Positions 2 to 63,632 of a stretch of 64,000 nucleotides of DNA are shown here, piece by piece. Positions within the stretch are counted from its first letter, which is position 1. Every line of letters starts with the position of its first letter. Under the pieces are notes generated by a model. The model was not told the origin of the DNA. It did no database searches and saw only the letters and a list, made by a program, of their open reading frames with translations. The translations under genes were made by a program, and so were the position numbers. Origin of the DNA: a virus (taxonomy: Duplodnaviria > Caudoviricetes); IMG/VR virus record IMGVR_UViG_3300018429_000003, positions 2,074 to 66,073 of that record, one strand, 5' to 3'.

Positions 2-661
2 AATCCTGTCCGTTTCGCCCAACTTGCCGCAGATAAGGGGTGGTCCGTACAAGAGCTTGAGAAGTGGATAAAGTTAAACGAGCCGAACCGTCAAACGCCC
101 CGGCTCGTCGGGTTACCATCCCCTGGCGCGCCGACGCTCTCAGGTTCCGTTACCGTGATCGGAGACCTTCTGGACCCCGACGTTGAAGAGGCAGAACAGG
201 AAGATTCAGAGCTTTCAGCCGAGGAAGTCGAACAGCTCCGGGCTGAGATTGAAAAGAGCCTTCGCGTATTGTCCGCGCTTCGTGATGGCTGTCAGAGTCC
301 CTACCTCGTTAGTCGCTACATTGGTGGCTGGATTGAAGAGCTTGATTGGGAGTTGGCTGAGATAACGAAAGCGCCCGGTAAGTTCAGCGAGCGGGTAATG
401 TCGCTGATTAACGCTGGGTGCTACGTTAAGGAACAGATTGCAGCGCGCGCGCGCGGTTCAGTTATCGACACTCAACAAGCCCTTGACCTGCTGAAGAAGC
501 AGAGGAAGATTGAGCGCCGAAAGCAACGCAAAACCCAGATGGCCAGAGGACTCCCAACGTACCTATGGATGCCGGTGGACATGCCTGCCGGCAGTGACCT
601 GGATCTTGGTGGGCGGCCATCGTTCGAGAGCGAGGATGAAGGGAGTGAGGAGCATTACTGA
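2..661 (+). CDS. Hypothetical protein, 5'-truncated by the window edge
   Basis: The frame of ORF 155..661 stays open back to base 2 (NPVRFAQLAADKGWSVQELEKWIK...). Confidence 0.6.
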   Translation, partial: NPVRFAQLAADKGWSVQELEKWIKLNEPNRQTPRLVGLPSPGAPTLSGSVTVIGDLLDPDVEEAEQEDSELSAEEVEQLRAEIEKSLRVLSALRDGCQSPYLVSRYIGGWIEELDWELAEITKAPGKFSERVMSLINAGCYVKEQIAARARGSVIDTQQALDLLKKQRKIERRKQRKTQMARGLPTYLWMPVDMPAGSDLDLGGRPSFESEDEGSEEHY

Positions 662-1723: not shown

Positions 1724-2224
1724 ATGAGCGATCCCGGCATGATTGGAGAGTCCAGCCTCGAAAAGCGGATGATCGAGAGCCTCCGCCGTCTTGATGAGAG
1801 GATCGACTCCGAGCGGCATCTGACAAATGAAAAGTTTGCTCATTCAAAGAGCATTATAGAGGGCAACGATAAAAGATACGCAGAGCGATTTGAGGCACAG
1901 AAGGAAGCTAACGCGCAGCGATTCGACGCCCAAGAGGTAGCTAACAAGTACGATCAGGAGAAATCCAACGAATTCAGAGGCGCGTTAGAGGACGTAGGAA
2001 AAAGGCAGATGCCTCGCACCGAATGTGAGGCGATGTTTAAAGCGATATCGGAGAACGCTAACGCCGCCATACATGCCAACAGTGAAAAGATTGCGGCGCT
2101 TCAGGCGAGACTGGATCGAAACGAAGGACGCGGGAGCGGGTTTGATGCGGGATGGAAGATATTGATCGGAGTAGTCGCATTGGCCGCGGCGCTGCTTACA
2201 ATCTTTTTAGGACTGAAGCCGTGA
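1724..2224 (+). CDS. Coiled-coil protein with a C-terminal TM helix (lysis/membrane accessory type)
   Basis: Heptad-rich body; ends WKILIGVVALAAALLTIFLGLKP. Confidence 0.7.
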   Translation: MSDPGMIGESSLEKRMIESLRRLDERIDSERHLTNEKFAHSKSIIEGNDKRYAERFEAQKEANAQRFDAQEVANKYDQEKSNEFRGALEDVGKRQMPRTECEAMFKAISENANAAIHANSEKIAALQARLDRNEGRGSGFDAGWKILIGVVALAAALLTIFLGLKP

Positions 2225-19812: not shown

Positions 19813-19842
19813 AAAACGTAAAAATTCCCCTCGTGGTAATTT
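19813..19842 (+). promoter_or_regulatory. Late-type promoter, copy 6
   Basis: AAAACGTAAA-N14-TAATTT, 8 nt before ATG 19851. Confidence 0.65.
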
Positions 19843-19850
19843 CGCCAGCG

Positions 19851-21770
19851 ATGGCAACGACCTCCAAGAAAACCCCCGGGCTCCACTACCTCTCCAAGAT
19901 CGTTGCGGCGATTAAGGAGAAGCTGAAAGCCGGAAATCTCACTGAGACGGACCTTGACGGCATCGTTAAGAGCGCTCGCTCACACGCCGGAGGTAAAGCA
20001 AAAGCTGAAAAGATGAAAGCCGACACTGCGGCGCTGGTTGCGTTTGAACAGCAGTTTGAAGCTGCTGAGGCTGGCGGTAATCAAACTGGCCTGATGATTT
20101 GTTTCTATCTTTCTGATGACGCAGCGGCTCGGCTGGCTATTCCCCAAGGCGAATCACATGAAGACCTTCACCTGACCCTTTGCTACCTGGGCGACTCTTC
20201 ACAGTTTGGCGAGATAGCAATTGCGGAGATTCTCATTGCTTGCCGCAATCATGCGAACTGGCAAACACCACTATCCGGCGTAATCTCTGGAACCGGCCGC
20301 TTCATAGGTGACGAGATCGACGTCTACTACGCATCGGTCGATATCCCGATGCTTGCCGAGTTCCGTACTGACCTTGCGCGAAGGTTAGCGAGTTGCGGAA
20401 CGCCCGCCAAGACAGAGCATGGTTTTGACCCGCACATCACGCTCGCCTACTTGGAAAAAGACGATCCAACGCCTGACTACGATGTGAGTGATATCGAGCT
20501 TCGGTTCGACACCATGTCCGTGATGATTGCAGGGCGACGCGTTGACCTACCAATGGCCATGTCGAGCAATTTCAACGAGGTTGCCGATTTGTGCAACCAG
20601 TCAGGGCCCATGCGCTTATTCATGGAACAGCAGTTCGCGGACGCGCCCGAGTGGATTAACTATCTGCCAAAGCCCGGTGTATACACCAGCCCGCGCTATG
20701 GGCAAATCACCATCACAAAGGAGCGCAACCAGAGCTTTGTAGATAACTTCCTTAACGAGGTCTACCAGAAACAGCTTCCGATCGATAACGAGCATGATCT
20801 CGCGCAGTCCGGCGCTTCTGGCTGGATTACGTCGATGAAGATCAACGACGACGGAGGCGTTGACGCGAAAACCGAGTGGACCGATCGCGGCAAGAAACTA
20901 ATCGAGGAAGAGCGGTTCAAGTATTTTTCGCCCGCCTGGTTTGATAGCTGGACCGATCCGGTTAACCCGGAAACCAGACATAAAAACATCGCAATCGGCG
21001 GCGCACTGTGCATTCGCCCTTTCTTCAAAGAAAACGCTTTGCGCCCAATCGTGGCTAACGAGCAAGGCCTTTCCATTCTTACCGGTGATGTTCCGGAAAA
21101 CTTAAATTCATCCGATACGGTAAACCTACACTTCGAGGCGCTCACGCCAGTAACCGATCAACAAGGAGCTAGTGACATGACCCAAAGTGCTAATCCGACG
21201 CCGCAACAGTTCACGGAACTGGAAACCAAATTCCAAGCGGCGGAAAAACTGGCCAACGAAGAGAAAGCCCGTGCGGATGCCGCGGAGGCCAAGCTCAACG
21301 AGCAAAAGCAGGCCGCCGAAGCTGCAACGACCGAACTCACCAAAGCCACGGAATCAGTCACGAAGCTGAATGAGCGCGTCGCAAGTCTTGAGAAAGACAA
21401 GCGCACTTCTCGCTTTACCGAAATCTCACGCAACTGGATTGGCGAGCGCCAGGGCCACATCGACATGCTCGAACTCATCGTTAACGCCACCGAGAAGGGC
21501 GAAGAGTCCACGGAGTTCAAGGCTTATGTCGAGTCTCAGAACGCTGCGGTCGAACGTGTGAGAACTGCCGGCTTGTTCACTGAAGCTGGAAGCACGGCGC
21601 CGGCTGCTGGCGGTGCGATTCAGAAGATTGAAGCGAAGGCTCGCAAGATGGCCGAAGACAGCGCCGGCCAGCTGAGCTACGAGGCCGCAATGACTGCCGT
21701 TTTGGAAGCTGAGCCGCAACTCTACAAAGAGCACCTTGCGGAAATGCGCGGCGGAGCAGTCGCCGGTTAG
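19851..21770 (+). CDS. Fusion of a 2H phosphoesterase (Acb1/2'-5' RNA ligase-like), a Mu-like prohead protease and a coiled-coil scaffold
   Basis: DLHLTLCYLG and FDPHITLAY (two HxT motifs); LPIDNEH...ASGWI...EWTDRG...FKYFSP; helical C-terminus. Confidence 0.85.
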   Translation: MATTSKKTPGLHYLSKIVAAIKEKLKAGNLTETDLDGIVKSARSHAGGKAKAEKMKADTAALVAFEQQFEAAEAGGNQTGLMICFYLSDDAAARLAIPQGESHEDLHLTLCYLGDSSQFGEIAIAEILIACRNHANWQTPLSGVISGTGRFIGDEIDVYYASVDIPMLAEFRTDLARRLASCGTPAKTEHGFDPHITLAYLEKDDPTPDYDVSDIELRFDTMSVMIAGRRVDLPMAMSSNFNEVADLCNQSGPMRLFMEQQFADAPEWINYLPKPGVYTSPRYGQITITKERNQSFVDNFLNEVYQKQLPIDNEHDLAQSGASGWITSMKINDDGGVDAKTEWTDRGKKLIEEERFKYFSPAWFDSWTDPVNPETRHKNIAIGGALCIRPFFKENALRPIVANEQGLSILTGDVPENLNSSDTVNLHFEALTPVTDQQGASDMTQSANPTPQQFTELETKFQAAEKLANEEKARADAAEAKLNEQKQAAEAATTELTKATESVTKLNERVASLEKDKRTSRFTEISRNWIGERQGHIDMLELIVNATEKGEESTEFKAYVESQNAAVERVRTAGLFTEAGSTAPAAGGAIQKIEAKARKMAEDSAGQLSYEAAMTAVLEAEPQLYKEHLAEMRGGAVAG

Positions 21771-27929: not shown

Positions 27930-28277
27930 ATGCCTGTCAAAACCAAACGCACAAGTTCAACGATGAGCACTTACCACGCGACCGCGAAACGTCTTAACGA
28001 AACCGTCGAGCGTCACGCGAAGGGCGCAGCGGTTCTGGTGAGTGAACTGGCTCCCGTAAGTGAGAAGGACCATCTGCATATGTACCAAACTGTGAGCGCG
28101 CGGGAGGAGAGAAAGGGCAGGTGGAGAATAATCGTAGCTGCTGTTTATTCCGTCTTTCAAGAGTATGGGACGATTTTTATGGAGGCTCAGCCATTCTTCA
28201 GACCTGGAATTGCGTCGGCCCGAAGAGCACTTCGACGTGATTTGAAGATTGTGAAGGGACCACCGCGGATTAGCTAA
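27930..28277 (+). CDS. HK97 gp10-like tail completion protein
   Basis: LAPV......YSVFQEYGTIFMEAQPFFRPG. Confidence 0.8.
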   Translation: MPVKTKRTSSTMSTYHATAKRLNETVERHAKGAAVLVSELAPVSEKDHLHMYQTVSAREERKGRWRIIVAAVYSVFQEYGTIFMEAQPFFRPGIASARRALRRDLKIVKGPPRIS

Positions 28278-29067
28278 TTTTTGTTCTCTTTCTCTTTATC
28301 CACGCACTGCGGCGATGGCCCGCATTTTCTTTAGGTGTTGCCCACCTGCAATTCCCCGGTTCATAGTCACCGTCATTGTTAATACGATCAATTTGATGCC
28401 TGGAAGTTGGCCGTCTCCCCATATCAGCAAGAAAGTTTTCGAAGGTCTGCCAGCGCTCACATACCTTTATTCCACGGCCTCCGTAGTATTCCCAACTGGC
28501 CATTCTTGGATTTGAGCAGCGTGATTTCATCCCAGCCCAAACTTTATATTCTGCGCTCTTAGTCTCGCCGTGGACCAAGTTCCCCTTATTCTCAAGTGGA
28601 ATTCCAAGATGTCTGCAATGCGATGCGATGCAATTACCCGAAACCGCAAAGCGCCTACCCACATCATTAGCTGATAACCCGTCGTTAATCAGTTCGCGCA
28701 ATTCATCAGCGGACGGCATCGGCAAGTCCTCTTTGCGTCGCGTAGTCCATATCTTTGGCTTTGCAATGCCGTGCCGTTTAAGCCAGAAAGGGACCGCGGT
28801 GAAGTCCACGCCGAACATCGCAGCGATTTCACGGTAACTATGATGCTCACCGTGAACCAATCTCTCTAGATCTTCCTTCGTGGGTTCTTGCTGTCCTCGA
28901 TTCAGCAGGCCGTTATGACTTGCTCGCGGTTGAATCCCATAGTGAAGTAGCCACCGGCGCACCGTGATGTGAGCAACCTCATAGATGCTCCCAATCTGAC
29001 GTGTAGTAAGGCGTTGAGCCTCATACAAGTCGCGAACCGTTTCTTTGCTTGGACGTTTACGTTTCAC
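28270..29067 (-). CDS. HNH endonuclease with three N-terminal HTH repeats
   Basis: EYKVWAGMKSRC.NP....YYGGRGIKVCERW..FENFLADMG...IDRINNDGDYEPGNCRWAT. Confidence 0.9.
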   Translation of the reverse strand: MKRKRPSKETVRDLYEAQRLTTRQIGSIYEVAHITVRRWLLHYGIQPRASHNGLLNRGQQEPTKEDLERLVHGEHHSYREIAAMFGVDFTAVPFWLKRHGIAKPKIWTTRRKEDLPMPSADELRELINDGLSANDVGRRFAVSGNCIASHCRHLGIPLENKGNLVHGETKSAEYKVWAGMKSRCSNPRMASWEYYGGRGIKVCERWQTFENFLADMGRRPTSRHQIDRINNDGDYEPGNCRWATPKENAGHRRSAWIKRKRTKIS

Positions 29068-29222
29068 TGTGTTCTTTCTTGTCGAACCAAGCGCAGATAA
29101 GGCAGTGGCTTTGGCTTCAAAGTCATCCTGAGAACCTTCTTGCGTGGTCTAATCTTTGGCCTCAGCACTATCACAAAGTACTGAGGCCGTTTGTCTGGTA
29201 GTGGTAAGCAGATGCTTTTCAT
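29064..29222 (-). CDS. Small basic protein (not in the ORF track)
   Basis: 52 aa, MKSICLPLPDKRP...; overlaps the stop/start of both neighbours. Confidence 0.45.
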   Translation of the reverse strand: MKSICLPLPDKRPQYFVIVLRPKIRPRKKVLRMTLKPKPLPYLRLVRQERTQ

Positions 29223-29584
29223 TAGTTGCTTATCGCCTCCTGAAATTCAGACTCCGTCAGCGGGCGGAAGAGTTTCAATGGGCCTCCGTACTTTTCGGGG
29301 TTCATCGTTACGTGCTGCGCAACCATGTCCTCTTGTGCAACGTCCACTCCTTCGTTTGTCGCTTCTTCGCAAAGAACTGCGTAGCAAGCACGGATAACCC
29401 GCGGGTTCCAAATAGGAACAACCGATAGCAGTTCCAATAGATGATCTTTGATTCCAGCGGCTACGCCTTCCGGCGTGTCGTCGTTCTCGATGAGGCTGGC
29501 ATACTGAGCGGCCAACTTCTCAAAACGTTTGCGGTTTCTGGTGGCGGTGGAATGTGAGCGGGTGCTATTCTTTGAACGTGACAT
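29222..29584 (-). CDS. Hypothetical protein, first gene of the moron's leftward operon
   Basis: AGGAG SD; 120 aa. Confidence 0.65.
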   Translation of the reverse strand: MSRSKNSTRSHSTATRNRKRFEKLAAQYASLIENDDTPEGVAAGIKDHLLELLSVVPIWNPRVIRACYAVLCEEATNEGVDVAQEDMVAQHVTMNPEKYGGPLKLFRPLTESEFQEAISN

Positions 29585-29738: not shown

Positions 29739-29933
29739 ATGGAAGGTTCGGAATTAAAGAGACGCCGTGAAGCGATGGGATACTCCCAGGGAGAGATGGC
29801 CCGGCTGATGGGTGTGCACTCAATGACGCTGTCAAAATGGGAGCGTGACGTTCTCCCGGTCCCGCTCTACATCGAACTTGCCCTTAAGACTCTCGAACGT
29901 GAAAAGCTTGCCAAGCCACGCTCTAAGAAATAG
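29739..29933 (+). CDS. XRE-family HTH regulator (leaderless)
   Basis: LKRRREAMGYSQGEMARLMGVHSMTLSKWE; ATG 8 nt after the -10 box. Confidence 0.9.
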   Translation: MEGSELKRRREAMGYSQGEMARLMGVHSMTLSKWERDVLPVPLYIELALKTLEREKLAKPRSKK

Positions 29934-29944
29934 AATTTTGGGAC

Positions 29945-30778
29945 ATGAAAACCCTCCCAGCGCTCTTCCTCCTCTCCTTTCTGTTTTGCTTCTCTTCTGT
30001 TTTCAGCCAGCAAGGCAAGGTGGTCGAACAGACGAAGGAGCAAGCCAAGTTACAACGACAGGCTGTAAAGGATGCTGAAAAGCGGCGAAAGCGCGAAGAA
30101 AAGGAACGACTAAAATATCCTGCATCAGTCCAGATCTCCGGCGCGGCTGATCAAATCGGCGCACTAATCGTACAGCATATGAACAGCCTGAATTACCAGA
30201 TTGTTGAGGAAGGTAAATACCGAATAGTTTTCAGCCAAGAAGTTGCCGGTTTTCGGGGTGCTTTGTATGGAGGGCTCGTGGGAGCGCAAGGACCGCCATT
30301 GCGGATCTTGGCGTTTACGATTACACAGCTTGGGGATACCAGCACAGTATCGGTGGACATCTCCCTACGGATAAGGAAGGCTTTTGGCAGAGTTGACCGC
30401 GTAGATTTGAACAAAAACAGGGAATGGCGCTCCGACGTGGACAGTTTTCTTGGGACGCTCAAGTATCGCACCGAGCTACGCGCGGATACTGGCAGACCAG
30501 AGGTTAAGATCGAACGTCCTCCGGCTGTAGTTGATGAAAAGTTCCACGGCGTCACGCTGCGAGGCTTTGAACAATTGAAAGACGGAATGGACTACGCGAC
30601 CGTTGTACGCGTTCTGGGATCTGATGGTGTCGCGATTGAGAATCCCGTCAAAACGTCAGTGGCCGATTCAGTAACAACGTATCAGTGGAAAGTGCCCAGA
30701 GGCTCTGGCTTTGCAATCGTTATTGTTATGTTTAAGAACGACCGACTCTTGCACAAACTCCAGTCCGGCCTCGACTAA
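29945..30778 (+). CDS. Exported protein with a C-terminal BLIP/DUF3862-like domain
   Basis: Signal peptide; FEQLKDGMDYATVVRVLG..G......YQW...VMFKNDRL..K.QSGL. Confidence 0.7.
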   Translation: MKTLPALFLLSFLFCFSSVFSQQGKVVEQTKEQAKLQRQAVKDAEKRRKREEKERLKYPASVQISGAADQIGALIVQHMNSLNYQIVEEGKYRIVFSQEVAGFRGALYGGLVGAQGPPLRILAFTITQLGDTSTVSVDISLRIRKAFGRVDRVDLNKNREWRSDVDSFLGTLKYRTELRADTGRPEVKIERPPAVVDEKFHGVTLRGFEQLKDGMDYATVVRVLGSDGVAIENPVKTSVADSVTTYQWKVPRGSGFAIVIVMFKNDRLLHKLQSGLD

Positions 30779-30868: not shown

Positions 30869-33571
30869 GTCATCGAAGTCGAACGCCTAGAGGCTCTGTT
30901 CACCGCAAATACTGCGTCAGCAGAGCGTAACTTTGCCTCTCTTGATCAAAAGGTCTCAGCACTCGACCGCAAACTCCAAGGCTTCCAGGGCGTAGATCAT
31001 CTCGCCAGTAAACTAAACAAGGGCAGCAAGGCCGCTGGCGTCATGGCTGGAGCCGTGGGAGGCTTAGTCGTCATGCTTGGCCAGCGTTTGGTTGACGCAC
31101 TCACTTCCGGCGCCAGCGCGTGGCTCAATTACAGCTCCAAACTCGAATCAACAAAAATAGCCTTTACCACCATGCTGGGTAGCGTTGACCTGGCCACTGA
31201 ACACCTCGCGGAACTTCAAACATTCGCCCTAAAGACTCCCTTCGAATTTGAGGGCCTGATCGATGCCTCCCAGACGATGCAGGCACTTGGCTTCAACGCC
31301 TCTCAGGTTATCCCGATCTTAGAAGACGTTGGCAACGCGGTTGCTGGAGCCGGTGGCGGTAAAGAAAGGCTCGACCGCGTAGTCCTGGCGTTAGCTCAGA
31401 TCCAATCAAAAGGAAAAGTTGCCACCCAGGAAATTAACCAATTAGCAGAGTCTGGAATCAGCGGCTGGAAGATTCTCGAAGCGCAGTTGGGTAAGAGCCG
31501 CGCTGAGCTAACGAAGATGGTCGAATCTGGCCAGATATCTTCAGCCGTTTTCCTCGAAGCGTTTCAGAAGTTCTCTAAGCAAAACTTTGGCGGCTTGATG
31601 GAGGCCCAGTCAAAGACCTTCGCGGGCGCCATGAGCAACATCAAAGACGCGCTGCTCCAGACTTCGGCAACCGCCTTCGCACCGCTCTATCAAAAGCTCA
31701 GCGAAACTGCCCTGGCTTTAGGTGACATGGCGAATAACTCCAAGAAGTTCAAAGACGACATGGAGAGTCTTGGAAAGGTGATGGTCACCGTCTGGGAGGG
31801 AGCGGGAACCCTTATCTACGCGGCCAGGGATGCGGTAGGCATCGTCTCCGCGCTGGCTACCCAGCAGTTCGCGATTATGACGCACGGTGCGATGGCGTTC
31901 GCCCGTGGCCTTCAATCGGTGCTGTACAACATGGAGGCTTTTGCGAGGCTTGCAGTTGGCGATTTCTACGGGGCTGCCATAGCGATGATAAAGAGCAATC
32001 AGCAGGCGGCGCTTGCTGTGGGCGAGATGAAGGAAGCAGTTGAGGCCAGCGGCATCGCCATCCGCGCGGCAGGTCAAATGTGGACCGATCTTAGCGATCG
32101 TGCGACTCGGGCCGCGATGAAAACGGTCGAAGCTGGGGTAATGATTAACGCCGCCGCAGCAAACCTGCTGGGCGCTAACGTTGGACAGAGCGCTTTGGGT
32201 GCGGGAATCTTCCGACAGAAAGCCGCTCCCACCAGTCTGGGTACATCAACGTCGAAAGGCACTGACCCGGCTGTTGCTCAGCAACGAATGGAAGAGCTGA
32301 GGCTCAAGGCTACGCTCGCAAGACTTGACGAGGAAGATCGAGCGAGAGAACGAAGCCTTGAGAAAAGAAAAAAGCAGTTCGAAGTGTTCATGTTCGAACT
32401 CGGAGTTAGCGAGGAAAGCCGCCACCTAATAATAAAGAACAGCCTGGAGAGCGAAAAGAAGGCTGCGGAAGCTTTGCGCGATCCTCAGCAACGCAATATT
32501 CAACTGCTCGAAATCGCAAATAAAATCACTGAGGAGAATAATCGACACCAGAAGGCTAACGAGGATATGGCCGACAGGCGCGCTAAGGTTCTCGACGAGA
32601 CCAACGACTTCATCAAGGATCAAAACGAGGCGATGGCCGAGAGCGTTGTGCGCACCGACCGATGGACCGCCGCAGTCAATGCCCATATTAAATCGCTGGC
32701 TAAGCAGGGGGTTGCCCTCCGGTATGAGCAGGAACTGATGTTGCGCATGAGCGCGCTCGATAAGGTCGTCGCAGAGAACAGGGAGCGGGCCATTGAGGCG
32801 ATGGCGGACCCGTCTAATATGCGCATCCCCTCCGGTCTGGATCAAATATTTGGAGATATCGAGGCGCAGCGCGACGCGTTGGCCGATGCCATCAACCAAG
32901 GAATGGGCGGCGAGCTTCCACCTGTGATGATGGACCTGTCTTCTTTCTACGATCAGATGCGCCAACTTGGGCGCGACCTCACTAACACAATTGACGATTC
33001 CATCCGCACGGGCTTTGAGCGAGGCATTGGCGCGGGCGTGCTGACCTTCTTTCAGGGAATACTGGAGATGATCAACAGTGCCGCTCTGAATGCGCTGGAA
33101 AAGCGCCTTGCAGACGTTTTCTCGGGCTTAGGCGGGGGTAGCGCGGGCGGCGGTGGTAGTTGGTGGCAAAAGCTGCTGGGAATAGTGGTAGGGGGGATTG
33201 CTGGAGGCGTTGGCGGCAGTCTAACCGGAGGCGGCACGCCGGGCGGTACCGACATTGGCCGCTCCGTCAACCTTCCAGGCTTCTCAGGGTTCGGCCGGCG
33301 GGCCAAAGGTGGAGATGTAAGCGCTTGGAAGCCTTACATGGTCGGTGAAAAAGGCCCGGAGATGGTTATCCCAAACCGCAACTCTTACGTCGTTCCCAAC
33401 AATCAACTGGCTGCGATGAATGGAGGCGAGGCAAAGAATTACCACTTGCATTTAACGCAGTTAATTCAAGCACCAAGCGGCCGAGTTGCGCCCGAAAGCG
33501 CGGAACAAGCCGCCGCGAAAGCGATGAGCGCGATGGCGAGTTTTAGCGCGAAACGAGGAGGGAACTTCTGA
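30869..33571 (+). CDS. Tape measure protein (true start unresolved)
   Basis: Tape-measure domain FALKTPFE...LAQIQSKGKV..EINQLAE; RAKGG.V....YMVGEKGPE; the frame extends upstream of ATG 31043 as VIEVERLEALFTANT. Confidence 0.9.
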   Translation, partial: VIEVERLEALFTANTASAERNFASLDQKVSALDRKLQGFQGVDHLASKLNKGSKAAGVMAGAVGGLVVMLGQRLVDALTSGASAWLNYSSKLESTKIAFTTMLGSVDLATEHLAELQTFALKTPFEFEGLIDASQTMQALGFNASQVIPILEDVGNAVAGAGGGKERLDRVVLALAQIQSKGKVATQEINQLAESGISGWKILEAQLGKSRAELTKMVESGQISSAVFLEAFQKFSKQNFGGLMEAQSKTFAGAMSNIKDALLQTSATAFAPLYQKLSETALALGDMANNSKKFKDDMESLGKVMVTVWEGAGTLIYAARDAVGIVSALATQQFAIMTHGAMAFARGLQSVLYNMEAFARLAVGDFYGAAIAMIKSNQQAALAVGEMKEAVEASGIAIRAAGQMWTDLSDRATRAAMKTVEAGVMINAAAANLLGANVGQSALGAGIFRQKAAPTSLGTSTSKGTDPAVAQQRMEELRLKATLARLDEEDRARERSLEKRKKQFEVFMFELGVSEESRHLIIKNSLESEKKAAEALRDPQQRNIQLLEIANKITEENNRHQKANEDMADRRAKVLDETNDFIKDQNEAMAESVVRTDRWTAAVNAHIKSLAKQGVALRYEQELMLRMSALDKVVAENRERAIEAMADPSNMRIPSGLDQIFGDIEAQRDALADAINQGMGGELPPVMMDLSSFYDQMRQLGRDLTNTIDDSIRTGFERGIGAGVLTFFQGILEMINSAALNALEKRLADVFSGLGGGSAGGGGSWWQKLLGIVVGGIAGGVGGSLTGGGTPGGTDIGRSVNLPGFSGFGRRAKGGDVSAWKPYMVGEKGPEMVIPNRNSYVVPNNQLAAMNGGEAKNYHLHLTQLIQAPSGRVAPESAEQAAAKAMSAMASFSAKRGGNF

Positions 33572-33576
33572 TGCGT

Positions 33577-33608
33577 AGAAATGAAAACGGCCAACCGAAG
33601 TTGACCGT
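33577..33608 (-). terminator. Intrinsic terminator of the repeat RNA
   Basis: ACGGTCAAC-TTCG-GTTGGCCGT followed by TTTCATTTCT on the minus strand. Confidence 0.8.
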
Positions 33609-33609
33609 C

Positions 33610-33704
33610 TTTCCGTACCATGCCTTGCCTGGTCTCGCCGCGCCGAGCCTCGCCGGGCCGCTCCACATCTTGCCTTGACGCGCCAGGCCTAGCCTAGCCG
33701 TGCC
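33610..33704 (-). repeat. 19 x 5-nt array with constant GGY and variable NN
   Basis: GGCAC GGCTA GGCTA GGCCT GGCGC GTCAA GGCAA GATGT GGAGC GGCCC GGCGA GGCTC GGCGC GGCGA GACCA GGCAA GGCAT GGTAC GGAAA. Confidence 0.95.
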
Positions 33705-33710
33705 GGGCGC

Positions 33711-33740
33711 AGTGTACGCGAAGAATGGAGGATTTGACAA
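33711..33740 (-). promoter_or_regulatory. sigma70-type promoter for the repeat RNA
   Basis: TTGTCA-N18-TACACT; predicted +1 falls on the first G of the array (33704). Confidence 0.7.
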
Positions 33741-34388
33741 GTGGCTTGGATAAATTTTGACGAAGTTTTGCTCGATCCGTTTTATACGAACCTCGCGCGC
33801 GGCGGCCCGGAATATGCGACCGCGACTATCGACACCATAGCAGGCGTCGAGCAAACACGATCGAGTCGTTACGATTATATTAGTCGGTATCAAATTGACT
33901 TCGCAGAGCTATCGAACCAGAGACGTAAGGACATCCGCACCTTCCACATTTTGCGCTTTGGCATGCTCTACGGGTTCCGCTTTCTCGCACCAGATGACTC
34001 GACAGACGATGGCAAGGGCGTGTTGCTGGATGCTTCCGGCGTTCAGGTGAGTTCGGTGGTGAACGGTTCGACCTATTATTTGGCCAAGCGGTATGTCGAT
34101 GTTCGAACTTATTACCGTCGCATCGTGAAGCCAATCGGGGGAGCGTGGGGGACAGCGCCTCAGTTGCTACTCGCTGGTTCGCCGGCTGCTTCAACCACAA
34201 ACACAACGAACGGGCAGATAGTTGCCGGTGCAAACGGGAACACTCCTACATGGACCGGAACATTCCATCTGCCTGCAAGATTTTTGACTGATTTTTCCGA
34301 CATGGCCACCGATGAAACCACGATATCGGAGTGGACCGGGATCGGGCTCAGAGAATTGTTGCCCATTGCTTTAGGAATTTCGGCTTAA
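33741..34388 (+). CDS. Distal tail protein (DUF2460/GTA-like)
   Basis: FDEVLL......GGPEYAT...YGFRF...YLAKRY...RRIVKP...FHLPARF..D; GGAGG SD. Confidence 0.85.
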   Translation: MAWINFDEVLLDPFYTNLARGGPEYATATIDTIAGVEQTRSSRYDYISRYQIDFAELSNQRRKDIRTFHILRFGMLYGFRFLAPDDSTDDGKGVLLDASGVQVSSVVNGSTYYLAKRYVDVRTYYRRIVKPIGGAWGTAPQLLLAGSPAASTTNTTNGQIVAGANGNTPTWTGTFHLPARFLTDFSDMATDETTISEWTGIGLRELLPIALGISA

Positions 34389-34393
34389 ACATC

Positions 34394-35251
34394 ATGCCTA
34401 TTTCAGTTGGGATGAAAGAGTATATCCGTGGAAGCGCCTTTGTAAGCACCTTCATCAAAGTCACCGCCAAGGACGGCACCGTAATCGCGATTAGTAACCA
34501 CACTCGCAATCTGGTTATTGATGGAACGAATTACCTTGCCTGGCCGTTGCAGCCAACTCAATTCAATCAGACCGCGGGACTGAACGCCGACAACGCCGAA
34601 CTCGATACGGTGATGGCGGATCCATTCTCGGACATCAAACTGCGGGGTAAGAAATGGTCAGGCGCACGCGTGCTCTATCAACTGTTCAATCCTGCGGACA
34701 TCACCTTAGGCCCGCTGTTCAGCAAGTCTGGATTCATCGGTGACCTCACAATCCGCAAGTTTAGTGTGACTTCACAGTTCCGCTCGATGTCGCAGCTGCT
34801 AAATCAGCCAATCGGCGAAATGGTCATGGAGGATTGCATTGTTATTGAACTTGGCGATGCTGACTGTGGCGTCAATCTGGCTGGTAATACGGTGACCGGA
34901 TGGCCCATCTCAGTTAACACCTCGATTAGCTCCTTTGCCAATCAGCAACAGTTTACGGTTGGGTTGGGTTCACCACGGCCCGATGACTTTTTCAAGATGG
35001 GCAAGGTGCTGTGGACCTCAGGCGGTAACGATGATCTCGAGATGCACATTTTGAAAAGCGTCGGTAATCAGATCACTTTATTCGGTCCCGCATTTTTCAA
35101 CATGCAGGTTGGCGACACGTTGACGCTGATTGCCGGTTGCAACCGCACGCGCGCTCAGTGTCGCGATACTTTTGCGAACGTGCGCCGGTTCAAGGGCTAC
35201 CCAGACTTACCTGGAAGATCGAGGCTTCTTCGTTTTCCTGAGGGCGCGTAA
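34394..35251 (+). CDS. Baseplate hub protein (DUF2163/BR0599-like)
   Basis: C...LGDADCGVNL...LWTSGGN...AGCNRT..QCRDTFAN...FKGYPDLPG. Confidence 0.85.
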   Translation: MPISVGMKEYIRGSAFVSTFIKVTAKDGTVIAISNHTRNLVIDGTNYLAWPLQPTQFNQTAGLNADNAELDTVMADPFSDIKLRGKKWSGARVLYQLFNPADITLGPLFSKSGFIGDLTIRKFSVTSQFRSMSQLLNQPIGEMVMEDCIVIELGDADCGVNLAGNTVTGWPISVNTSISSFANQQQFTVGLGSPRPDDFFKMGKVLWTSGGNDDLEMHILKSVGNQITLFGPAFFNMQVGDTLTLIAGCNRTRAQCRDTFANVRRFKGYPDLPGRSRLLRFPEGA

Positions 35252-39758: not shown

Positions 39759-40253
39759 TTAACTTCCCTGTCTCAAAGTGAACCTCTCAACCTGTGTTGA
39801 GTAGGGCAGCATCAAGGGGTGTCGCGGTGTGCCGTCGCCGTTACGTCCGAAGCAGTACAGATCCGGAATCTCTCTCTCGATTGCTTCGCAACGTCCGACA
39901 AAATAGTTTCCGTTTTTACCCCACGCGGCGATAACTTTCGTCGGCTTGAATTGCCGAATGTATTGCAGCAAGTGCTCAACACTGTTCTCTGGGCCAACAG
40001 GATCAATGGCTTTGCGGCATTTCCGGGGATCTGTTTCACGGTAGGCCGCTACATTCAACTTTAGTATCCCGCCAAATCCAAGACGGGAGGCAAACCCAAT
40101 GTCCTTGAGGATGGTTTGATCGTTCGTTCGCCAGTCCGCTGTCGATGGATTTACGCCGATGATCGCGAGCAACGGCAACCGGGAATCCCAAACACGAATC
40201 AACCAATAGCGATACTTGCCGTCCTCAGAAATGTAGGCGTCACTTATTTGCAT
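39759..40253 (-). CDS. DUF1643-family protein
   Basis: AYISEDGKYRYWL.RVW...IGVNPSTAD...D.TI...AAWG...GTPRHPL. Confidence 0.9.
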   Translation of the reverse strand: MQISDAYISEDGKYRYWLIRVWDSRLPLLAIIGVNPSTADWRTNDQTILKDIGFASRLGFGGILKLNVAAYRETDPRKCRKAIDPVGPENSVEHLLQYIRQFKPTKVIAAWGKNGNYFVGRCEAIEREIPDLYCFGRNGDGTPRHPLMLPYSTQVERFTLRQGS

Positions 40254-43266: not shown

Positions 43267-43998
43267 CTAGGAAGTGCCGCTGCCGGCCCTTTCCCTTTGG
43301 CTCTTTTCAATGGCCTGAGTAAATCGAATCGCCTCACGGTAATCGTTACCATTGCGGCGTTGTTTTCGCGCTGCATAGCTCCACGCCATGGAGTCGGCAG
43401 AATGTAAGAGGTGTCGTATGGTTCCGTTTGCCAGAGCTGTAGATTTCAGCCCAAAGCCATGCAGCCGAAGGTCGGGTCTGAGCGTTTTTACCGAAGAGAG
43501 GACCGCAAGAATCGCTCCGATGTCGGCGTTCCGTTTGCAGACCGAGCCCACTCCTACCCAAGCGCCAATTGGAAACCGCTCTCCGTACATCTGGACATGC
43601 CTTGCATAGTCAAGCGGTTCATAGCCTTGCAGGACCGGCAGGATGTAGGTATCGGTCTTCTCGGTTATTAGATCATCGTATTCACGAATCGTGAGACGCT
43701 GATGCTGTTCGACTGTCATCCCGGTTCTGGCCAGCATTGGCGCCTCGCACATGTAATCGCGGCTCACGGCGGCAACGAGATTTCCGTTACCTCTCCAGCG
43801 ATTCACTTCACGGGCGAAGTCCGATGTGGGCTTTGGATAGCCGCCGTGCTTTTCGATTGTGGTGAAACCTGCGCAATCCATAATCCAATCCCTTACCTCG
43901 AACGGTCCCTTGCGATCGCAAATCCGATTGACAGAGATAAAGCACCGCTCAAAATGCTTAGCGTCTGACGGCTGGTGGAGTCCCACATAGAAATCCAA
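43267..43998 (-). CDS. tRNA-guanine-transglycosylase-like (DpdA-like) protein
   Basis: WIMDCAGF, RDYMCE, LPVLQG, VGVGSVC, LHGFGLK and SADSMAWS motifs of phage TGT-fold proteins. Confidence 0.75.
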   Translation of the reverse strand: MDFYVGLHQPSDAKHFERCFISVNRICDRKGPFEVRDWIMDCAGFTTIEKHGGYPKPTSDFAREVNRWRGNGNLVAAVSRDYMCEAPMLARTGMTVEQHQRLTIREYDDLITEKTDTYILPVLQGYEPLDYARHVQMYGERFPIGAWVGVGSVCKRNADIGAILAVLSSVKTLRPDLRLHGFGLKSTALANGTIRHLLHSADSMAWSYAARKQRRNGNDYREAIRFTQAIEKSQRERAGSGTS

Positions 43999-62648: not shown

Positions 62649-63632
62649 GTGAAAGTTCTGCTTCTGCAGCTTGATGGAAAGATCCCGAACATCGCGTTAA
62701 TGCGCATCGCAGCGCACCATCGCACTCTGGGTGACGACGTTGAGTTACGCCACGGCACTAGTGAGACAGAAGCGGGCCTGTTCGATGATGCCGATCAAGT
62801 TTACGCTTCGCTCATATTCACTAAGACACGACCAAAAGCCGAGCGACTAAAAGCAACGCGGCCTAATTCTGTTATTGGCGGTACAGGATGGGACTTAACT
62901 ACAACACTTGAAGCGCACGGCATTACAACGCCCACTTATGATTACTCGATCTACCCCGGCTGGAAGCAGAGTATTGGCTTTACGCAGCGCGGTTGCCGTT
63001 TACGCTGCTCGTTTTGCGTAGTCCCTCAGAAGGAGGGCGCGATTCGCGAAGTCGCGACCATTGCAGACATTTGGCGTGGCGACCCTTCGCCGCGGGAGAT
63101 CTTATTGCTCGACAATGATTTCTTTGGTCAACACCAGTGGCGCGAACGAATTGCAGAGATCAGGGATGGCGGGTTCAAGGTTTCATTTAATCAAGGCATC
63201 AACGCGCGTACGCTTAACGATGAAACCGCCGCCGCGATTGCCTCAGTGCGTTATTACGATGACAGCATGAGCGCGCGGCGGGTTTATACCGCGTGGGACA
63301 ACCGAAAGGACGAGGCGCGACTGTTTGCAGGGCTCAACGCGCTTACACGGCAGGGCGTCAAGCCTCACCACATCATGGTCTACATGCTGATTGGCTACTG
63401 GCCGGGCGAAACGGACGCAGATTGGGAGTACAGGCGGAGTCAATTGAGAACTTTTGGTGCGCGACCGTACCCGATGCCTTACGTTCGAACCGCAGCGACG
63501 ATGGGTTTTCAGCGTTATTGCGTCGGCGCATATGACAAGCGGATTCAATGGACCGACTGGAAGGCTGCGAACTATCGACCTGAGAGGCTGGGCCTTCTGA
63601 CCCACGAACCTGAACTGGAGTTTGCAGCATGA
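62649..63632 (+). CDS. Phage radical SAM protein
   Basis: QRGCRLRCSFC (CX3CX2C); N-terminal DGKIPNIALMRI domain; LLDNDF. Confidence 0.9.
   Translation: MKVLLLQLDGKIPNIALMRIAAHHRTLGDDVELRHGTSETEAGLFDDADQVYASLIFTKTRPKAERLKATRPNSVIGGTGWDLTTTLEAHGITTPTYDYSIYPGWKQSIGFTQRGCRLRCSFCVVPQKEGAIREVATIADIWRGDPSPREILLLDNDFFGQHQWRERIAEIRDGGFKVSFNQGINARTLNDETAAAIASVRYYDDSMSARRVYTAWDNRKDEARLFAGLNALTRQGVKPHHIMVYMLIGYWPGETDADWEYRRSQLRTFGARPYPMPYVRTAATMGFQRYCVGAYDKRIQWTDWKAANYRPERLGLLTHEPELEFAA

Follow-up and report, generated by a model that had tools for sequence, protein, structure and literature searches.

A candidate solo VIPR-type guide RNA gene inserted beside the tape-measure gene of an uncultured phage

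What is a tandem array of G-rich pentamers, read from the minus strand and closed by a hairpin, doing between two tail genes of a phage whose genes lie mostly on the plus strand? The locus is found in a 64,000-nucleotide stretch of IMG/VR record IMGVR_UViG_3300018429_000003 (positions 2,074 to 66,073), which covers nearly all of this 66,073-bp viral record and is called the window below. A first-pass annotation made from the letters alone had read the array as a candidate guide RNA and had pointed to viral GGY/NN repeat RNAs with a RAMP-like partner, VIPR; such systems are real, and are the subject of 2026 preprints. As described in PMC13142463, Vipr is a minimal RAMP of ~20 kDa that polymerises on guide RNAs (vrRNAs) built of GGY/NN repeats and a conserved tail, with 9-16 repeats in the type II guides. 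According to the same preprint, the filament uses the NN bases to read double-stranded DNA and skips one base in each unit, usually a codon wobble position; seven VIPR types with differing array architectures exist, and perturbing the GGY triplets abolishes silencing. Filament and triplex structures of VIPR are reported in a second preprint (10.64898/2026.04.26.720927). A third (10.64898/2026.10.15.759431) describes solo vrRNAs carried by satellites and by 346 enterobacterial phages that are VIPR-null, the satellite solo vrRNAs redirecting helper Vipr to decoy sites; its vrRNA caller accepts four or more units, and its authors apply a target identity threshold of 0.8.

We consider it reasonably probable, at about 0.6, that the locus is a solo guide RNA gene of VIPR type that depends on Vipr supplied in trans, that sibling phages are its target, through a core that reads the 3' end of their tape-measure gene, and that the phage's own allele has been partly recoded.

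Anatomy and setting of the inserted unit

The viral record carries direct terminal repeats, has a CheckV completeness of 100% and a GC content of 53.8%. Terminase subunits, a Mu-type portal and a capsid protein are recognised among its head and packaging genes by Pfam and PHROGs; for the large terminase, no entry among 50,697 phage records exceeds 30% identity. The head module also encodes a 645-aa protein (19833-21770, plus strand) that joins a 2H phosphoesterase/LigT-like domain (residues 105-213) to a Mu-like prophage protein I (protease/scaffold) domain, which is an unusual fusion. Elsewhere, the presence of DpdA (PF23859, E 3e-37; 43267-43998, minus strand), a DUF1643 protein (39759-40253, minus strand) and a radical-SAM protein (62649-63632, plus strand) suggests a DNA modification pathway of the 7-deazaguanine type. 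The tail module contains an island upstream of the tape-measure gene, of which the minus-strand part (28270-29584) encodes a 265-aa HNH homing-endonuclease-like protein with HTH domains (PHROG matches down to E 2e-39) and two small ORFs, and the plus-strand part (29739-30778) an HTH_3 repressor-like gene followed by a 277-aa gene. Other small mobile inserts are therefore also present in the late operon of this lineage. The features at and around the array are as follows (window coordinates).

31043 to 33571, plus strand: tape-measure gene, 842 aa (PF20155), the 3' end of which carries a guide-like site
33571 to 33678, plus strand: 35-aa ORF whose ATG overlaps the tape-measure stop and which runs into the insert; GGAGGG site upstream
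33577 to 33609, minus strand: 3' tail, hairpin ACGGUCAAC-UUCG-GUUGGCCGU followed by a U-rich run
33610 to 33704, minus strand: candidate vrRNA guide array, 19 GGY-NN pentamers, from direct reading and script parsing
33711 to 33740, minus strand: predicted sigma-70-like promoter, TTGTCA-N18-TACACT, 9/12 matches
33741 to 34388, plus strand: DUF2460 distal-tail gene with a GTG start, part of a GTA-like tail tip
34331 to 35251: hub protein of the GTA-like tail tip (Pfam/PHROGs)
Also in the GTA-like tail tip (Pfam/PHROGs): host-specificity protein of 1,337 aa

Re-reading and script parsing return exactly the 19 pentamers in perfect register, the triplet counts and the dinucleotide list that the first-pass annotation had given. 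In transcript order the units are GGCAC GGCTA GGCTA GGCCT GGCGC GTCAA GGCAA GATGT GGAGC GGCCC GGCGA GGCTC GGCGC GGCGA GACCA GGCAA GGCAT GGTAC GGAAA, all in one register with no indel. Fourteen of the triplets are GGY (13 GGC and one GGT), two are GGA and the others are GTC, GAT and GAC, so that 5/19 units are off consensus; the NN positions (AC TA TA CT GC AA AA GT GC CC GA TC GC GA CA AA AT AC AA) hold 11 different dinucleotides within this single array. With an array caller that scores the GGY register at +1/-1.5, the array reaches 8.0 and nothing else on either strand of the 66,073-bp genome reaches 3.5, while the maximum in 60 first-order Markov genomes averages 3.09 (sd 0.28, highest 4). 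An origin by chance is excluded. Tandem Repeats Finder detects just 5.2 copies of period 5, with a score of 31, and the array is thus not a slippage microsatellite, in agreement with the original reading.

The promoter-like site that had been noted upstream of the array is present, with the -35 element TTGTCA at 33740-33735, an 18-nt spacer and the -10 element TACACT at 33716-33711, which would put +1 near G33704, where the array begins. Read on the plus strand, this stretch includes GGAGGA, which serves the DUF2460 gene as ribosome-binding site. Two such sites occur in 1.7 kb compared to 0.9 +/- 0.8 in shuffled sequence, so the promoter taken alone is weak evidence. At the other end, the UUCG hairpin that had been reported directly after the array occupies 33608-33587 and has nine pairs, one of them G-U; the fold lengthens it to 12 pairs (centroid), with the preceding AAAG pairing with the following Us, and the UUUCAUUUC tail reaches ~33577. 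The repeat tract is mostly unpaired in this fold, and the stability of the whole RNA is ordinary (z = -1.6; equalled or exceeded by 14 of 200 shuffles). The promoter/terminator scan does not call the hairpin and its U run as a terminator, which we read as the stem rule having taken up part of the U run.

A search of 33000-34300 against Rfam gives no match at E up to 10, and a nucleotide search of 33000-34400 against the 50,697 phage records gives none either. The 35-aa ORF overlaps units 6-19 only. Units 1-5 lie past its stop, the period-5 pattern continuing for 26 bases there; five is, moreover, no coding period, and the ORF is absent from all three relatives described below. Most likely, the insertion created it incidentally and it is no gene.

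Searches of three collections for relatives of the DUF2460 gene returned just three.

Closest relative (L001, identical to L005): complete 67-kb viral contig; DUF2460 67% identical (68% in a second alignment)
Second relative: 1.6-kb metagenome contig; DUF2460 60% identical
Third relative: Pyrinomonadaceae MAG, the sole relative in genome contigs; DUF2460 39% identical

In all three, the tape-measure stop and the DUF2460 start abut or are separated by a few to ~20 bases, and in the closest they overlap; the gap in the phage is 169 bases. No GGY-NN array and no remnant of a VIPR locus is present at the junction in any of the three, and the whole 67-kb genome of the closest relative contains neither an array nor Vipr. 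The unit is, relative to these three, an insert of ~170 bp in this phage only.

Vipr genes and GGY-NN arrays in this and other viruses

Nine perfect GGY-NN units in succession were found at no fewer than 137 loci in viral contigs and, among the loci listed, a family of proteins of 190-230 aa begins just after many of the arrays. A profile built from eight of these proteins matches 62 ORFs (at 51 of the 80 loci with full flanks and 11 of the 57 with short flanks, among those listed). It also matches the protein of Escherichia phage SUSP1, the type II reference, at E 3.7e-46, which identifies the family as Vipr. At the SUSP1 VIPR locus itself, our array caller finds guides on both sides of the 195-aa gene, and these vrRNAs also include off-consensus units (2/15 and 1/7).

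The first-pass annotation had recognised no RAMP-like ORF in the window, and this extends to the whole complete genome by four methods. With the Vipr profile, hmmsearch of all phage ORFs of at least 50 aa gives a best E of 0.6-1.6. A six-row Vipr alignment searched against the complete genome yields no candidate, the control records being found at 3.5e-43 and 7.3e-41, and hhalign of a 55-row Vipr profile against the 161 phage ORFs of at least 90 aa gives probabilities of at most 6.4%, compared to 99.9% for the control. The C-terminal Vipr motif, which is carried by 39 of the 62 Vipr matches, occurs in none of the phage ORFs. The unit is therefore no complete VIPR system but a candidate solo vrRNA, and such an RNA could act only on Vipr supplied in trans. 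This corresponds to the published class of solo vrRNAs and to the original suggestion that the RNA is an orphan or acts in trans.

Other complete viral genomes also carry arrays with no match to the Vipr alignment. One of 95.8 kb (L025, record G009; 95,777 bp, 100% complete) has more than 12 staggered GGY-NN arrays, while in another (L036, record G004; 100% complete at 45,388 bp, with terminal repeats) the only array has 11 units and a hairpin tail. It may be that orphan arrays are widespread beyond enterobacterial phages, or that the profile misses some Vipr types. Pfam searches of 12 genes flanking four other solo-like arrays returned nothing informative. A 108-aa ORF of the phage (genome bases 13-339, plus strand, outside the window) is 36-38% identical to RuvC-like resolvases that adjoin GGY-NN arrays in two other viral contigs (L008 and L037); since RuvC is common in phages, this likeness may be a coincidence.

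The 3' tails of other arrays were also compared. The 22-mer of the hairpin has one other match in viral contigs, at 2001-2022 (plus strand) of an unrelated 37.7-kb contig (L002), where it forms an ordinary terminator behind unrelated sequence, with no array. The recurrence is probably convergence of UUCG-loop terminators, and the tail accordingly gives no family signal and no tie to a particular Vipr type. Three other sampled arrays end in GG(G)GAA(A)G followed by a GC hairpin, a layout like that seen here. One of the three, with a GGAAAG-hairpin tail, follows the end of a vipr gene at a distance of ~340 bases in another viral contig; two others belong to records, 77% and 14% complete, in which no Vipr was found. 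The nearest layout to the tail of the phage unit belongs to a 14-unit, solo-looking array (L041, 2001-2110, plus strand), which ends in GGGGAAAG, a GC hairpin and CUUUCC-AUUUAUUUCC; its 56-kb record, at 77% completeness, yielded no Vipr.

The tape-measure match and its competing explanations

Potential targets were scored by the rule given in 10.64898/2026.10.15.759431, which for this guide means 38 informative bases with one wildcard per unit. With one base skipped per unit, the closest relative has a site at the 3' end of its tape-measure gene that agrees with units 7-15 in 17 of 18 informative positions; it lies on the sense strand of the gene, 52-107 bases before the stop, and every skip falls on a wobble position. 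The gene is the same one that abuts the insert in the phage. The guide core spells [K/N]-V-A-P-[E/D]-S-A-[E/D]-[Q/H], and the relative encodes K-I-A-P-E-S-A-E-Q (AAG ATT GCG CCA GAG TCT GCG GAA CAA). A score of 17 is reached by none of 300 unit-order shuffles (six reach 16), none of 300 base shuffles (nine reach 16) and none of 159 real guides from other phages (maximum 16, in two guides), and skip rules of 0, 2 and 3 give only 14-15. Together with the vrRNA-like anatomy, this match at the level of the code supports the guide-RNA reading put forward in the first-pass annotation.

The phage's own gene contains a weaker version of the site.

33464 to 33519, plus strand: guide footprint on the phage's own tape-measure gene, in codon register under the 1-nt skip; 20/38 overall

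Here units 7-15 face R-V-A-P-E-S-A-E-Q (33482-33508; CGA GTT GCG CCC GAA AGC GCG GAA CAA) and match at 14/18, two of the mismatches falling where serine uses the other codon family and two where Lys is replaced by Arg. Within this stretch, units 8-15 (33485-33507, V-A-P-E-S-A-E-Q) match at 14/16, with both mismatches in the Ser codon AGC where the guide has TC, and this is the best eight-unit match anywhere in the phage genome. The two alleles differ in match by 3 of the 18 core positions, and discrimination on that basis is conjecture. Over the full length, the guide matches 23/38 (0.61) in the relative and 20/38 in the phage. Both values are below the 0.8 used by the authors of the published rule, and the intended target, if any, is thus probably a third allele. 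The inference of a target draws on one relative genome only.

Searches for such an allele, or for a full-length target of any kind, gave values at the level of chance. Within the phage genome, the best full-length self-target under skip rules 0-2 is 22/38, compared to a shuffled null of 22.3 +/- 0.9; in 143 collected loci, including their vipr genes, the best is 25/38, compared to a null mean of 23.35 and maximum of 27. Exact eight-unit seeds from units 1-8 and 9-16 find 22 and 20 matches in viral contigs, the best being 26/38, again the chance level. The core seed finds 29 matches in viral contigs, of which the sole tape-measure gene is that of the known relative; the best of the others, a match of 25/38 at the C-terminus of a DNA methyltransferase, was rejected as due to chance. 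At the protein level, the last 149 aa of the tape-measure protein have two weak partial matches among related loci, and searches with the C-terminal 153 aa return the protein itself and four distant or partial proteins, none with the APESAEQ motif. When 225 other guides were compared with the DNA within 2 kb of each, no enrichment was seen and the maximum was 15/18, so the adjacency of guide and site is a peculiarity of this case and not of vrRNAs generally.

How such a gene might work can be set out from these observations. We infer that transcription from the minus-strand promoter would begin with the first G of the 19 units, and that the UUCG hairpin and U run would end the RNA at ~125-130 nt and double as the 3' tail of the vrRNA. 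The source of the Vipr acting in trans would be a co-infecting phage, the host or a resident prophage; with a protomer seated on each GGY triplet, the protein would hold out the NN bases for reading. Units 7-15 would then read codon positions 1 and 2 of the conserved K-[V/I]-A-P-E-S-A-E-Q in the tape-measure genes of siblings, and binding at the 3' end of that gene might block late transcription of the rival into its tail-tip genes. The four core mismatches in the phage's own copy (Ser as AGC rather than TCN, and Arg as CGA rather than AAN) may spare the phage itself.

An alternative to this working guide, unlikely though still to be weighed seriously, is a decaying relic, that is, a vrRNA gene that once worked or was acquired by recombination from a phage with VIPR and is now inert for want of Vipr, the tape-measure match being the fading trace of an old target. 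The lack of Vipr from a complete genome is as expected for a relic, as are the five off-consensus units, three of which (GAT, GGA and GAC) fall in the matching core, and the low full-length identities, the best to any sequence being 0.68 (26/38, the chance-level seed match) and that at the tape-measure site 0.61. The unit is nevertheless compact and apparently complete, the array beginning at the +1 predicted from a promoter-like site and leading into a 12-pair hairpin that is intact. Its register is unbroken by any indel across the 19 units, working SUSP1 guides likewise contain off-consensus units, and nine consecutive units still match at 17/18.

It is improbable, in our estimation, that the RNA is a decoy or anti-VIPR RNA that soaks up or redirects the Vipr of a rival, with the likeness to the tape-measure gene incidental or itself a decoy site. 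The satellite solo vrRNAs of 10.64898/2026.10.15.759431 offer a precedent, the 19 units exceed the 9-16 given for type II guides in PMC13142463, and a full target is missing from the collected loci and from the seed searches of viral contigs. An in-frame match of 17/18 beside the point of insertion is, however, hard to call incidental, and the closest relative has no Vipr to be decoyed.

We give similarly little weight to a homing or poison-antidote cassette, in which an RNA guide and a recoded, immune target allele would travel together. On this reading, the guide would lie ~90-240 bases from its own immune allele, the synonymous change of Ser from TCN to AGC would evade a code that skips the wobble position, and the relative that lacks the insert would retain a sensitive allele ~50-110 bases from the empty site. 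Given Vipr in trans, especially of a nuclease-linked type, the guide could disable naive siblings in mixed infections, and guide and immune allele would spread jointly by recombination because they are too tightly linked to separate.

The binding site of CsrA has a GGA core, and the triplets bound by TRAP are GAG or UAG. That the locus is unrelated to VIPR, being a CsrA-like or TRAP-like sponge (the alternatives named in the first-pass annotation), a G-rich structural element or a real 35-aa gene, is very improbable: a period-5 triplet array does resemble TRAP sites in outline and GGAGGG does precede the 35-aa ORF, but the in-register triplets include GGA in only 2/19 units and GAG or UAG in none, which leaves the sponges unsupported, Rfam and the comparison with relatives offer neither a known RNA family nor a conserved gene, the GGY-NN pattern accompanies Vipr genes at 51 of 80 full-flank viral loci among those listed, and the tape-measure match arises only under the 1-nt-skip rule of VIPR.

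Comparison with known systems

The candidate guide resembles the type II vrRNAs of SUSP1 in its tandem GGY-NN units with a constant triplet and variable dinucleotide, its occasional off-consensus units, its structured 3' tail directly after the last unit, its predicted length of ~100-130 nt, and the match of its core to protein-coding sequence with one wobble base skipped per unit. It differs in that no vipr or vap gene is present nearby or anywhere in the genome, in having 19 units instead of the 9-16 of type II, and in being rich in GGC whereas the SUSP1 arrays are rich in GGT. Its tail is a simple UUCG terminator hairpin rather than the pseudoknot of SUSP1, and the unit is single, inside a tail-gene operon and on the opposite strand.

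In 10.64898/2026.10.15.759431, the solo vrRNAs of VIPR-null SUSP1-family phages and F5 satellites are likewise guide genes on mobile elements with no protein of their own, presumed to use the Vipr of a competitor, with a self-match lower than the match to relatives and a wobble-aligned target. According to that source, the published solos are former VIPR loci that retain the family tail after a 1,114-bp vipr-vap1 deletion, whereas the phage unit is a 170-bp insert at a place where its relatives have no VIPR locus. The targets described there are vipr genes, other vrRNAs, satellites and host repeats; the best match of the present guide is, by contrast, a structural gene of a sibling, next to the guide. 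VIPR was described only in 2026, and the solo guides reported to date come from SUSP1-family phages of enterobacteria and from their satellites. If our reading is correct, solo guides also occur in an uncultured phage that is unrelated to these, its large terminase sharing no more than 30% identity with any phage record, and a guide can arrive as a stand-alone 170-bp cassette and not as the remnant of a deleted locus.

Two other known systems provide further points of comparison. Orphan mini-CRISPR arrays borne by viruses target close relatives and rely on the Cas proteins of the host. The phage unit is similarly a virus-carried guide with no effector that would be aimed at sibling viruses, but those arrays carry contiguous spacers while the code here is a gapped pentamer code, and the effector family is another one. 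Free-standing homing endonuclease genes of phages are small intergenic inserts that are absent from relatives. In common with these, the unit has a putative recognition site in the relative, ~50-110 bases from where the insert is missing, and a diverged site in the carrier; it differs in being a candidate RNA guide with no nuclease of its own, and the likeness is one of geometry only, not of cleavage or gene conversion. The allele pair, with a TCT serine in the relative and an AGC serine in the phage, raises the question of whether six-fold degenerate codons might provide a loophole in a code that ignores the wobble position, and the linkage of a guide to a recoded target bears on how vrRNAs are gained and how they spread.
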